From: Callorhinchus milii
Lineage: Eukaryota
Reading direction: 5' to 3'
Length of the DNA: 64,000 bases
NCBI RefSeq assembly: GCF_018977255.1
Contig: NW_024704744.1
Coordinates: 63,116,001 to 63,180,000, forward strand
The notes under the pieces were generated by a model. It was not told where the DNA came from. It saw only the letters and a list, made by a program, of their open reading frames with translations, and searched no databases. Shown here one piece after another: positions 20,965-45,708 of this stretch; position 1 is the first letter of the stretch, and every line of letters begins with the position of its first letter. The translations under genes and the position numbers were made by a program.

Positions 20965-21122
20965 TCAGTACTGTGGGAAAGTTTTGTCAATCTTACGAGC
21001 CCAAGCCATTAGTCCACCCTGGATATCCTTCACAAATAATGTGCCCAGGCCTTTGTCCAATATCTCTTCTAAGATTTTAACAGCCTTCTGGGAATCATTT
21101 CCTTGTTTACAGATGACAAACA
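20965..21122 (-). CDS. MOCS3: MOCS3 exon 13 (terminal coding exon)
   Basis: [55 protein letters not shown]; minus-strand AATAAA candidates at 20756-20761, 20501-20506, 20341-20346. Confidence 0.95.
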
Positions 21123-24100
21123 CTGGAATTAGAAAAGCAGGAAATTAGGCTATATTGCACCTCATGGAACAAAAATCTTTTCATGATGAAGTGCTATACA
21201 AATAGTATCTCAAGATTTAGCAAAGATCATCTGAAGCAGAACAGAATGTACAGTAGAACCTCCCTAATCCGGTCACTCAAGTAACTGGTCAAAAGTGACT
21301 TATTTGGTGAGGTGACCAGATTACTGAAACAGGATTACATAGGATGAACACTGAACAACTATACTTCGCAGTTTCACTAAAATAAGGGCATTGTCACATT
21401 TAAAACAGATCTTAGGTTTCTTTATTCAAAGTTTACATGAGAAGTTAAAATCACAGTTGTTTGTACCGCGTTTGTACCGGAGGGCGCTTGTAGTGGCCAG
21501 AGTCACTGACCATTGTCCTGAATAGTGAGGTGCCCAGCAGACAGCCTATCTTTTAACATTGACAATGAAAGTGACTGAAAATGTGTTCGTAATTGTGAGG
21601 TGGCTGGATTACTGAGGTGACTGCAAACCGTGTTTCTACTGTACTGCTAGGCAGTACAATTTACTGCTTTTCTAACAATACTATTCCATAGCATTGTAAT
21701 GTTCCCCGATTTTTCCATTAATTCTAAGCCATTTTGTAATTTGATAGTTATATCAAATTTATCCAGATGTCTTGGAGTTGGACTTCCACTCCCCCCCCCC
21801 CCCCCCGTCCTCTCACCACCATTCTCATTAGAAAGCCAGGTACGTGAAGGATTCGCATCATTTTGACTGCTGCTGTCCTGCTAACTGGTAGCAAAAGTCA
21901 AAAGCTCCAATGCCACGATTATCACAACTGAGAATAGCATTGGGGTAACTGGATTGGTTCTGGCACATCCATATACATTCAATGTGATAAATATCAAACA
22001 TACTGGCAATTTAGCCTTAATATTGTGTGTTCCAGAGTAGCTTTAGTGGATTGTCCTTTTCCAAAATGCTTCACCTCAATTAATAGCTCCCTCTGGTGGC
22101 GAATATAATTAATGATATTGTTTTCTCAGTCGTAAGGACATTGCTCAGATTTGGCAGCAGGCATTATTTTTAAGTAAACTATCCTCAAGAGCTTTATTAA
22201 TGCTCCTCATGATAGTTTTGATGCTGTGACAAGCATGCCACTTTTCCCCTAAGCCTTACATGAATGTGTTCCATCTAAAGTTTTTTTTCCTTTGAGAACA
22301 CAATTCGGCATTTTAATTATTCGTCATAAAAAGAAGTGTCAAATTACTGTAAATACATCTCAATGTTAATATATCTGGATATTCTTCTATTATGAAGGCA
22401 TTCATTACCTAGCAATTTGCCTGCCATCTATCTGAAACCAGAATAGAACTACAAAGGGGACAAAATTGATTGGATTGTTTTTGGTGGTCAGGTTACCAAT
22501 AACAGCAAGCTGAATTCTATCCCAGTCTACTTCTAATTAAACAGAGGTACTATGTTTAGTATTCAAGATTATGTTATGATGGCATTGTAGTCATGCCGTG
22601 AATTCAAAGATAAGGTTACCTGAATTGAAGAATGTAAGATTACATGGAGATCCTTGCAGCTTATACATAACACAATCAGATACTAATCCTTATAGAATAG
22701 TCTAAATCTGTATTTGGTACCAGAATGTGTCAACTCATATATAGTGCAGTTAAGGTAAAGGCAAAAATATGTATTATTTATGCAGCAGTTGACGGCAGTA
22801 AAGCACCTTTATATAAAAACACTAAAATGAACACTGAGATCTTGGATTTAAGGTCAAACAGCAAACACAAGAGATGCATACAATATCTTGCATTACAGAT
22901 TCTCTTTAAAAAGAGTGAACGTATTCATACTTAAATAATAATTTAGTAAAAAAGTTAATAAAAAGTTAAACGTTTCAGATATGTTTTGGCTAGCAGCTGA
23001 GCCAGGACTGTCAAAGCAAGAGCCTGGGAATGTCCTCCTGATGTGGAAGGAACAACATAAATGTAAATCTGCATTGTATTTATTGGTGAATTGATTTACA
23101 AGCCAGTATCAAGGATATTAAGCCTGGAACAATGTAGCTAATACCCAAACATCCATAGAAACAGTAGAGATTGGCTGAATGCAACAAGTGCGCCTGACAA
23201 ATATGAACTCCTTACAAAGAGCACAAGACTGAACTACATCTCTGTCCAAACAATATGTTTTACTCTTGGTCCCACCACAGTCCATTTGAAGGGAGTTGAG
23301 CAGACATCGGCTTTTATCTTGAACAGCACCCGGTTTTAGAGGCACAAAATTATAATCTAAATTATCTCAAGTCAAAATGTTCTTTTAGCATTGTTCTTAT
23401 GTCAAACAAGTTATTCATAGGCAACTTAATGCAAGTATAAAATTGCACGTGATTACTGCAGTCTGAAAGTAGTATTGTGATATGTAAACAATACTAAAAG
23501 AACACCTTGGCAGTGTTCTTTCAGTATTATTTACATATCACATAAAACAAAGTTACAACTAAACCCATTCAATGTTCTGAAAACAGTGCTTGATCTAATC
23601 TGAAGCTGCTGAGCCAGCGAATCTCCAGTCAGTCAATCAGTTCTCACACGGTTGAGATTCTCACTGCACCAAATTAGCCACTCAACACTTGGTAGTTTAA
23701 GGTTTCCAAAGCATCAAATACTAACATCTGCTGTTGTAAGATACTAGACCGATTATCATTAAAGAGTGTCCTGGGAGAACATTTTGTCACAGGAAATGGG
23801 CTAATTTTTCCTAATGAAAGATTCCAACTCTATACAGCTGGTAGCTGATAAACAGTCTCATTCAATTATTTAAACAAGGAAGCAGTTGGATTTATAATAA
23901 TAATCCTTGCATTTGATATAGTGCCTTATCACATCTTCAAGATCCTCAAAGTACTTCACACAATATACTGTAAAGTGAATTACTGTATACTTTGTGGGTG
24001 AAACGTGGCAGCCGATTGAGCACAGTAGTGTCCCACCAAAAGTCCTGGATTGAGTGACTAAATTATCATTATTTATTCTGAAGGGATTATTACCCCCAGG

Positions 24101-45100: not shown

Positions 45101-45708
45101 AGAGGGGTATACGCTGTGTGTAGTGATGGAGAGGGGTATACACTGTGTGTAGTGATGGAGAGGGGTATACACTGTGTGTAGTGATGGAGAGGTATATACA
45201 CTGTGTGTAGTGATGGAGAGGGGTATACACTGTGTGTAGTGATGGAGAGGGGTATACGTTGTGTGTAGTGATGGAGAGAGGTATATATACTGTGTGTAGT
45301 GATGGAGAGGGGTATACACTGTGTGTAGTGATGGAGAGGGGTATACACTGTGTGTAGTGATGGAGAGGGGTATACGCTGTGTGTAGTGATGGAGAGGGGT
45401 ATACACTGTGTGTAGTGATGGAGAGGGGTATACACTGTGTGTAGTGATGGAGAGGGTATACACTGTGTGTAGTGATGGAGAGGGGTATATACTGTGTGTA
45501 GTGATGGAGAGGGGTATACACTGTGTGTAGTGATGGAGAGAGGTATATACACTGTGTGTAGTGATGGAGAGGGGTATATGTGGGGGGCGGGGCCCGGTAC
45601 CTGCTGCAGCTGCTCCATCGCGGCTCTGAGCCCCGCCACCTCCGCCTCCTTGTCGCGCAGCTCCTGCCGCAGCCTTGCCATCTCCCTCTGACTCTCCGCC
45701 GCCTCCAT
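20965..45708 (-). CDS. MOCS3: Adenylyltransferase and sulfurtransferase MOCS3/UBA4, complete 13-exon gene, 471 aa
   Basis: Exons of 108,151,93,121,75,118,109,63,164,48,97,111,158 nt join in frame (1416 nt). MoeB/ThiF motifs [37 protein letters not shown]; rhodanese DVRP, CKQGND; C-terminal FPQY-stop. Confidence 0.96.
21251..21641. mobile_element. Non-autonomous Tc1/mariner-pogo (Tigger-like) MITE in MOCS3 intron 12
   Basis: TA|CAGTAGAAC...GTTTCTACTG|TA terminal inverted repeats with TA duplication; sub-terminal GAGGTGAC...GATTACTGA motifs. Confidence 0.75.
23895..24250 (-). mobile_element. SINE (long subfamily), rearranged
   Basis: Tail 23895-24040, body to about 24190, second tail piece to 24250. 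Confidence 0.8.
25815..26175 (-). mobile_element. Deu-like SINE
   Basis: CAAACAGTGCAATGGGATCTTTAACATC...CCTCGGTTTAA core plus tail. Confidence 0.65.
26441..26551 (-). CDS. MOCS3: MOCS3 exon 12
   Basis: [37 protein letters not shown]; phases 1/1 fit both neighbours. Confidence 0.85.
26735..26990 (+). mobile_element. CR1 3'-end remnant
   Basis: AGGAATTTTTTCATGCAG...AGGGTGGTGGAGGCAGAGTC...GACAGACCGAATGATCTCCT. Confidence 0.65.
27058..27427 (-). mobile_element. Full-length tRNA-derived SINE (long subfamily)
   Basis: Same head and tail plus an extra CTGTTTACCTAGCAGTAAGTAGGAACC segment. Confidence 0.92.
27741..28080 (+). mobile_element. Full-length tRNA-derived SINE (long subfamily, diverged)
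   Basis: GGAGTCCTGGAGCTCAGTGGTTAGAG head, ATCAAATGCAAGGATTATT tail. Confidence 0.9.
30007..30103 (-). CDS. MOCS3: MOCS3 exon 11 (start of rhodanese domain)
   Basis: [32 protein letters not shown], donor GTATCTTTTT. Confidence 0.93.
31291..31338 (-). CDS. MOCS3: MOCS3 exon 10
   Basis: [24 protein letters not shown]. Confidence 0.9.
31615..31863 (+). mobile_element. 5'-truncated SINE
   Basis: GATTCCCAGCAGGGCAAAACCTTGGGCAAG body through (ATT)n tail. Confidence 0.85.
32445..32608 (-). CDS. MOCS3: MOCS3 exon 9
   Basis: [55 protein letters not shown], donor GTCAGT. Confidence 0.94.
33117..33433 (+). mobile_element. Full-length SINE (short subfamily) with probable 9-bp target-site duplication
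   Basis: Flanked by CTTGTACTT (33108-33116) and CTTGCACTT (33434-33442). Confidence 0.93.
33912..34140 (-). mobile_element. SINE 3' fragment
   Basis: TTGCATTTGATAGAGCACCTTATCAC...TGTCCCACAAA. Confidence 0.7.
34575..34637 (-). CDS. MOCS3: MOCS3 exon 8
   Basis: [21 protein letters not shown], donor GTATCTTTT. Confidence 0.93.
35413..35521 (-). CDS. MOCS3: MOCS3 exon 7
   Basis: [44 protein letters not shown]. Confidence 0.96.
36091..36208 (-). CDS. MOCS3: MOCS3 exon 6
   Basis: [39 protein letters not shown], donor GTAATG; preceded by TTCTTAAC branch site and AT rather than AG. Confidence 0.9.
36291..36365 (-). CDS. MOCS3: MOCS3 exon 5
   Basis: [25 protein letters not shown], ends at U12-type donor GTATCCTTTT. 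Confidence 0.9.
37190..37790 (-). mobile_element. Cluster of SINE tails and a Deu-like SINE
   Basis: Tails at about 37195 and 37370; GGACACCGGGGAAAA...GCCATGAGGTATTTAACAT core. Confidence 0.65.
38086..38400 (+). mobile_element. Full-length SINE, CGC-anticodon head, short body
   Basis: CTCGCTTCGCAAGCGAG anticodon arm; shared body and tail. Confidence 0.9.
38640..38760 (-). CDS. MOCS3: MOCS3 exon 4
   Basis: [48 protein letters not shown]. Confidence 0.96.
39195..39960 (-). mobile_element. L2 LINE 3' fragment in MOCS3 intron 3
   Basis: DLGVLFD...[12 protein letters not shown]...KLQ.IQNS. Confidence 0.85.
39988..40080 (-). CDS. MOCS3: MOCS3 exon 3 (nucleotide-binding loop)
   Basis: [38 protein letters not shown] boundaries. 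Confidence 0.96.
40575..40860 (-). mobile_element. L2 LINE 3'-end remnant
   Basis: Tail CATTTACACAGCACC...TCGAAGCGTT followed by purine-rich L2-like sequence. Confidence 0.55.
40917..41067 (-). CDS. MOCS3: MOCS3 exon 2
   Basis: ttttcag|KSCCTF...[27 protein letters not shown]. Confidence 0.92.
41910..42140 (-). mobile_element. SINE 3' fragment
   Basis: GTCTCAAAGCGCTTCACA...ACAAACAGCCATG...GGACACCGGGAGA. Confidence 0.6.
42810..43288. repeat. Degenerate AT-rich tandem repeat related to the 29-bp unit
   Basis: Recurrent TATACTGTGTGTAGTAATGTAAATG-like units. Confidence 0.75.
43289..43595 (+). mobile_element. L2 LINE internal fragment between the two tandem arrays
   Basis: [13 protein letters not shown]...[22 protein letters not shown]; closely similar to 63145-63445. 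Confidence 0.9.
43605..45580. repeat. 29-bp minisatellite (TACACTGTGTGTAGTGATGGAGAGGGGTA), roughly 65-70 copies, in MOCS3 intron 1
   Basis: Direct periodicity of 29 nt with 28-31 nt variants. Confidence 0.98.

Follow-up and report, generated by a model that had tools for sequence, protein, structure and literature searches.

MOCS3 and Uba4 join two activities in one protein: the N-terminal ThiF domain acts on the sulfur carriers MOCS2A and URM1, adenylating each at its C-terminus, and the C-terminal rhodanese domain relays persulfide sulfur to molybdenum-cofactor synthesis and tRNA wobble thiolation. The human gene is listed among 25 orphan retrogenes (Ciomborowska et al. 2013, PMC3548309, Table 1), and the retrogene replacement of MOCS3 has thereby been published in outline since 2013. 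The same paper dates each orphan-retrogene event (its Figure 1), uses a Xenopus laevis sequence to represent the parent of human MOCS3 (supplement file 3) and found traces of the parent for CHMP1B alone among the 25 genes. In zebrafish, one mocs3 intron of about 100 nt, at 17:42829244-42829344, is assigned to the minor class, and both rnpc3 mutants splice it wrongly (Olthof et al. 2024, PMC11347168, Table S6). GT-AT introns of the U12 type are documented in DEADC1 and SLC24A6, and such end pairs can splice productively (Sheth et al. 2006, PMC1557818).

The present study concerns the housekeeping gene MOCS3 of the chimaera Callorhinchus milii, which lies beside QPCT in a window of 64,000 nt (the whole stretch of DNA analysed; contig NW_024704744.1, positions 63,116,001 to 63,180,000, with all coordinates below counted from the first letter of the window). 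Gene and event are the same as those of the human orphan retrogene, for which PMC3548309 gives an intronless human copy, an absent parent and a multi-exon orthologue outside the amniotes; the accessible parts of that paper differ from our account in giving neither an address for the parent nor classes for its introns, and in a species list without cartilaginous fish. This analysis adds the likely address of the parent and a set of minor-type introns from which the retrocopy would have been freed. We hold it very probable that the spliced gene on the QPCT side is the ancestral one, that an early amniote MOCS3 mRNA was retro-copied from there into the KCNG1-DPM1 interval, and that the spliced parent was subsequently lost.

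Gene model and splice-site classes of MOCS3

The coding model comprises 13 minus-strand exons, running from 45708 to 20965, which join to 1416 nt (471 aa and a stop) with no internal stop anywhere in the joined frame; the 12 introns spread across the coding sequence are what the orthologue of a lost retrogene parent should possess. The frame is kept only if intron 5 is taken as GT...AT (36290-36209). The features, from the 5' end of the gene, are as follows.

45601 to 45708, minus strand: exon 1, 108 nt coding, ATG at 45708, further in-frame ATGs at 45780 and 45681
40917 to 41067, minus strand: exon 2, 151 nt
39988 to 40080, minus strand: exon 3, 93 nt, GxGGLG ATP loop
38640 to 38760, minus strand: exon 4, 121 nt
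36291 to 36365, minus strand: exon 5, 75 nt
36209 to 36290, minus strand: intron 5, 82 nt, phase 2, GT-AT, donor GTATCCTTT, branch-point-like TTCTTAAC, A at -15
36091 to 36208, minus strand: exon 6, 118 nt
35413 to 35521, minus strand: exon 7, 109 nt, first CxxC
34575 to 34637, minus strand: exon 8, 63 nt
32609 to 34574, minus strand: intron 8, 1966 nt, phase 1, GT-AG, donor GTATCTTTT, branch-point-like TTCCTTCAC, A at -15
32445 to 32608, minus strand: exon 9, 164 nt, second CxxC
31291 to 31338, minus strand: exon 10, 48 nt, edges by record arithmetic
30007 to 30103, minus strand: exon 11, 97 nt, start of the rhodanese domain
26552 to 30006, minus strand: intron 11, 3455 nt, phase 1, GT-AG, donor GTATCTTTT, without a strong branch-point match
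26441 to 26551, minus strand: exon 12, 111 nt
20965 to 21122, minus strand: coding part of exon 13, 158 nt, rhodanese active-site loop, TGA at 20967-20965
20300 to 20964, minus strand: inferred 3' untranslated region, poly(A) hexamer at 20346, extent by arithmetic

A preliminary description of this DNA had proposed 13 phase-compatible exons encoding an intact 471-aa protein of MoeB plus rhodanese type, and this is borne out by the translation, by spliced contigs and by the identity of all 471 of 471 residues with stored protein P0138 (UniRef V9KL13, Callorhinchus milii MOCS3). RefSeq model P0137 (XP_007896661) is the same protein with 24 additional residues from an upstream in-frame ATG, and either that ATG or the one at 45708 may be the start codon. 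At the protein level the gene is already annotated (RefSeq, UniRef). Against PDB, P0138 matches Uba4 (6YUB, E 2.9e-82), MoeB (1JW9, E 1e-60), ThiF and the rhodanese domain of human MOCS3 (3I2V, E 5.4e-40), and it displays the MOCS3/Uba4 architecture of an N-terminal ThiF/MoeB adenylation domain and a C-terminal rhodanese domain, with no protein-level difference from the known members (6YUB, 3I2V, XP_007896661, V9KL13). Pfam families PF00899 and PF00581 were found on shark orthologue P0002 and are also recorded for P0001. The translation carries the motifs GCGGLG, CYRC and CAVC, TNC, and CKQGNDSQ, which we take to be the ATP loop, the zinc CxxC pairs, the adenylation-domain Cys and the rhodanese active-site Cys, respectively.

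Eight of 15 sequencing runs were compared with the locus; no run is recorded as RNA, and their RNA status is guessed because contigs skip introns. Spliced contigs from runs of three studies agree with the model. Junctions 3, 5, 6, 7, 8, 11 and 12 were seen directly in run contigs (3, 11 and 12 in run X8, with the joints of introns 5, 6 and 7 likewise visible in runs), junctions 4, 9 and 10 follow from exact record arithmetic, and junctions 1 and 2, the run comparison having covered other stretches, are supported by P0138 and P0137 only. A 1997-nt contig (X1) and a 2150-nt contig (X2) put exons 4, 6, 9 and 13 at their modelled edges, X1 additionally placing exon 12, and each gap between contig pieces is as long as the exons missing from the listing taken together (73+2, 172, 145 or 256 nt). 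The loose ends of contigs coincide with the start of exon 9 in three of four runs (X4, X6, X9), supporting intron 8. On the side of the 3' untranslated region, two run contigs extend 584 and 602 letters beyond 20900.

Intron 5 is genuine, belongs to the rare GT-AT kind and bears U12-type signals. Its joint is free of positional ambiguity in run X4, and a scan of 17 in-frame 3' ends found none with AG. An assembly error at the AT end was considered and ruled out: run X11, which is DNA-like in covering this stretch without skips, reads through the AT end with its letters unchanged, and X4 splices exactly there. In four UniRef models of Callorhinchus milii, intron 5 is mis-spliced by reading through the donor, and a gar model has three extra residues at junction 5, as expected of read-through at a GTATCC donor; the GT-AT intron accounts for the faulty database models of Callorhinchus milii and probably for that of gar. 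The preliminary description passed over splice-site classes, mentioning neither the GT-AT ends of intron 5 nor the minor-type introns 8 and 11.

The pattern GTATCYTT occurs at 25 of 40,547 GT sites of the fetched DNA as against three of the 12 MOCS3 donors (introns 5, 8 and 11), a rough control in that its background is all GT sites and not true donors. The genome contains both U11 and U12 genes. Paired with this own-genome U11, the donor of intron 5 reaches -6.6 kcal/mol (about 3% of random GT sites reach -6) and those of introns 8 and 11 form an unbroken helix of -3.9 kcal/mol (about 12% of random GT sites reach -4), while the remaining nine introns pair more weakly (-3.1 to +0.9 kcal/mol); introns 5, 8 and 11 thus have the extended U11-pairing donor of U12-type introns. 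The U12-derived branch-point motif is matched at 8 of 10 positions, with A at -15, in introns 5 and 8, a score reached by 2.8% of 4,203 background acceptors. On these signals the minor spliceosome likely removes intron 5, and intron 8 is probably of the U12 type. Two results tell against extending this assignment. Intron 11 lacks a branch point complementary to U12, scoring 5 of 10 in the motif scan, and because of this shortfall it is filed as minor-like; TTTCCTAT, with A at -14, is a candidate picked by eye only. In addition, the energy of the U12 duplex, used as a branch-point test, was uninformative and failed to separate introns 5, 8 and 11 from the others because ordinary pyrimidine tracts scored equally well or better.

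The zebrafish intron resembles intron 5 of the chimaera in being a short, minor-class intron of the same gene; it differs in that the accessible parts of PMC11347168 do not state its ends, and a single mocs3 intron is listed there as responsive. That the two introns correspond is a guess from length only. The GT-AT introns of DEADC1 and SLC24A6 (PMC1557818) share with MOCS3 intron 5 the end pair and a U12-type donor and branch point, the present intron being a further example in a different gene. MOCS3 is not named in the accessible passages of bioRxiv 10.1101/2022.09.24.509304.

Other features of the gene deserve record. The donor of intron 12 (21123-26440), GTATTTTTC, resembles a further decayed minor-type donor; CAG precedes it, its U11 pairing is weak and there is no branch-point match, and shark and teleost isoforms vary at junction 12. 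Much of intron 1 is taken up by a minisatellite (43608-45578) with a 29-nt unit in about 67 copies that are 94% alike, which begins right past the first donor. Upstream of the gene, at 45780-45930, is a CpG-richer promoter patch with one ETS-like site and three spaced GCCAT(C/T)TT motifs, which we assume to be YY1-like; the patch could drive a divergent transcript toward QPCT as well, whose first coding exon is 7 kb off.

Probable ancestral address and proposed origin of the intronless copy

The preliminary description read the QPCT-side position as the ancestral jawed-vertebrate locus, and indirect synteny on the QPCT side supports it. Among the matches listed (the best 120 of each large search), MOCS3 and QPCT lie on contigs of equal length in 18 of the 18 other species present in both lists, namely 13 sharks and rays, gar, sterlet, paddlefish, Coilia grayii and coelacanth; sterlet has an additional QPCT on another contig. 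Identifier order tends to follow gene order. Ten of the 18 species could be compared in this respect, the other eight having identifiers from different releases or ones that were not looked up, and in nine of the ten the MOCS3 and QPCT identifiers fall within 13 numbers of one another. Heptranchias, Heterodontus, Mobula hypostoma and Hemitrygon have consecutive identifiers and Coilia grayii (an anchovy) has adjacent locus tags; the spacing is 2 in Narcine, 6 in Hypanus, 12 in gar and 12-13 in Pristis. As the species are related, they represent one ancestral state on both sides of the cartilaginous/bony split and not 18 independent tests. Given these two counts, the QPCT-side address is likely ancestral for jawed vertebrates.

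Judged by protein-level footprints and not by DNA, the intron positions are common to coelacanth, gar, sharks and rays. The X2 isoforms of coelacanth and Heptranchias lack exactly exon 3 (the same 31 residues), the coelacanth database model departs from the RefSeq model at junctions 2-3, 8, 11 and 12, a Hemitrygon isoform reads through at junction 11, and Chiloscyllium and Pristiophorus isoforms diverge at junction 12. Among 150 distant-eukaryote representatives at 50% identity, junctions 8, 9 and 12 fall in loops with natural insertions and deletions, which blurs the tracing of introns; a sponge model breaks near junction 8, a lead only.

In the chimaera genome one MOCS3 copy was found, and the KCNG-DPM1-ADNP site is empty. 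All matches to MOCS3 exon 9 (1 of 1) and to the coelacanth protein (8 of 8) lie at the QPCT-side locus, as do six of the seven matches to the bird protein, the seventh falling in a dispersed repeat. A weak match at 19.407 Mb of contig C2 (E 0.003, four stops; profile E 1.6e-4 in a small test set) was considered as a decayed retrocopy and rejected because its DNA does not resemble the coding sequence and because it coincides in part with a repeat matching at least 20 places in the fetched DNA. Contig C18 carries, in order, a Kv-type channel gene, a DPM1-like GT2 glycosyltransferase, ADNP and a PARD6-like gene, without MOCS3. The first, second and last of these are presumably KCNG1, DPM1 and PARD6B, names taken from family matches and gene order; Pfam and PDB searches with DPM1 exon 1 gave no match. 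The order equals, minus MOCS3, the list reported for chicken chromosome 20 (KCNG1, MOCS3, DPM1, ADNP, PARD6B; PMC12159700). A second, intronless copy beside DPM1, which the preliminary description had suggested looking for, was found neither by the genome searches nor within the 14.8-kb channel-to-DPM1 interval (3 N), where the best tblastn E was 0.20 with 142 proteins and the best profile E was 5.2; the same profile, as a positive control, detects the QPCT-side exons down to E 7e-28. The spliced gene thus has other neighbours than the intronless copy, and the place of the latter is unoccupied on C18.

The preliminary description had also cast the chimaera gene as a candidate parent of an intronless mammalian gene, and on both counts it needs amending. 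The chimaera gene is the orthologue of the lost parent and not the parent itself, and the event is likely older than mammals, as chicken shares the DPM1 address (PMC12159700). With chicken at DPM1 and Xenopus laevis supplying the parental orthologue, the move likely predates birds and took place on the amniote stem; retro-copying would fall after the amphibian split and before the split of birds and mammals. At its new site the retrocopy might have borrowed the promoter of DPM1. Retrocopies that recruit bidirectional promoters have been described, and MOCS3 is not named among them in the main text, as far as accessible, of PMC4772013; in this genome the CpG-island profile of the region upstream of DPM1 is not clear-cut.

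Several considerations weigh against this reconstruction. The intronless state of the human and chicken genes is taken from outside this analysis (human: PMC3548309). Synteny in the other species is read from proxies, equal-length contigs and identifier order, and for the QPCT side only; in coelacanth, sturgeon and paddlefish the link is at the chromosome level only, and Mobula birostris has its two genes on equal-length contigs, yet with identifiers 2,125 apart. Among the matches listed there is no amphibian with both genes, salamander MOCS3 being present without salamander QPCT. The tree was built from 25 hand-picked fetched proteins, with a partial bird sequence on a long branch as its sole amniote. 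Finally, no paper on a bidirectional MOCS3-DPM1 promoter was found in the literature searched, which consisted mostly of papers outside subscription.

An alternative in two steps, to which we allot a small probability, would have the spliced gene reach the DPM1 site by a DNA-level move in an early tetrapod, its introns being lost there later through recombination with cDNA. As no amphibian among the matches listed has both genes, this scheme keeps some room, and PMC3548309 concedes that other routes of intron loss are possible; it needs two rare events, however, where a single retroposition would both relocate the gene and remove all 12 introns, and the Xenopus laevis sequence serves as parental orthologue in that same paper. 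Less probable still is the reading in which MOCS3 sat originally at DPM1 and came to QPCT by a later move in the chimaera lineage. The DPM1 neighbourhood was examined in this genome only, and the sample is one of jawed vertebrates, but the QPCT link recurs in holocephalan, shark, ray, gar, anchovy (identifier order) and coelacanth (equal-length contigs), spanning both sides of the deepest jawed-vertebrate split, and these proxies largely refute the idea; together with the chromosome-level links in sturgeon and paddlefish as well as coelacanth, they also counter the lineage-specific translocation against which the preliminary description had cautioned. Equally improbable is hidden paralogy, that is, two ancient duplicates (QPCT side and DPM1 side) kept differently by lineage, for even with its one partial amniote sequence the species-like tree nests the bird with three salamanders (support 98/97), which argues against ancient paralogy, and the searches of this genome brought up neither another copy nor a remnant. 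Retroposition from the QPCT side remains our preferred reading, and the single copy found, with the tree and its one partial bird sequence, supports one-to-one orthology to the amniote gene.

Flanking genes

The genes on either side of MOCS3 are represented in the window by the following coding exons.

52762 to 62484, plus strand: QPCT coding exons 1-6, head to head with MOCS3, the last exon lying outside the window
4606 to 4983, minus strand: first coding exon of a protein kinase D gene, Pfam PF25525

MOCS3 had been placed between PRKD3 and QPCT. On the QPCT side this is secured by identity, exon 3 being 100% identical to the protein named Callorhinchus QPCT; on the other side PF25525 establishes the protein kinase D family, and the gene is presumably PRKD3. 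The kinase exon belongs to one of two protein kinase D loci found in the genome, which from the human sequence we take to be PRKD3 and not PRKD1; Atlas and PDB searches with it returned low-complexity chance matches only and no name for the kinase. The exon encodes a long proline/glutamine-rich insert, and the next exon lies about 83 kb leftward, at 63037178 of contig C3, across a first intron of that length. A long C-rich tandem repeat (9500-11300) follows a GC-rich patch at about 9.0-9.6 kb, which may be the kinase promoter.

The last QPCT exon is present twice, about 1.7 kb apart and with identical translation (at about window +67.9 kb and +69.6 kb), reflecting either a tandem duplication or an assembly artefact. 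Directly downstream of QPCT are SMOC-like exons; presumably this neighbour sets the locus apart from the human gene order downstream of QPCT. Several sharks and rays (Heptranchias, Mustelus, Mobula) have two QPCT-like proteins on the same contig, which suggests a local QPCT duplication in elasmobranchs.

Retrogene replacement and the minor-intron set

PMC3548309 was the only paper found that treats MOCS3 as a retrogene or as intronless, papers combining MOCS3 with QPCT were unrelated ones only, judged by title and opening lines of the abstract, and none combined it with both QPCT and PRKD3. In the retrocopy literature MOCS3 is mentioned in one of the best 30 of 247 papers, and it goes unmentioned among the best 25 of 708 papers matching minor-intron terms. 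In the same, mostly subscription-free literature no paper was found on the address of the parent or on the loss of its minor introns. That address shows where remnants should be sought and helps to date the event.

The spliced gene would depend on the minor spliceosome for intron 5, probably also for intron 8 and perhaps for intron 11, and the amniote retrocopy would have escaped that dependence in one step. It is a tentative suggestion, which we consider rather doubtful as it stands, that retro-replacement stripped up to three minor introns from MOCS3 at once and so freed the gene from control by the minor spliceosome. If true, retrogene replacement would be an overlooked exit route from the minor-intron set, and the lost parents of orphan retrogenes would be predicted to be enriched for minor introns. 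MOCS3 is the gateway enzyme for both the molybdenum cofactor and tRNA thiolation, and its minor-type introns would make it a natural experiment: its expression depends on the minor spliceosome in fishes, according to the zebrafish report, and would not do so in amniotes. Impaired molybdenum-cofactor synthesis or tRNA thiolation might accordingly add to the phenotypes of minor-spliceosome mutants in fish, and not to those in mammals.

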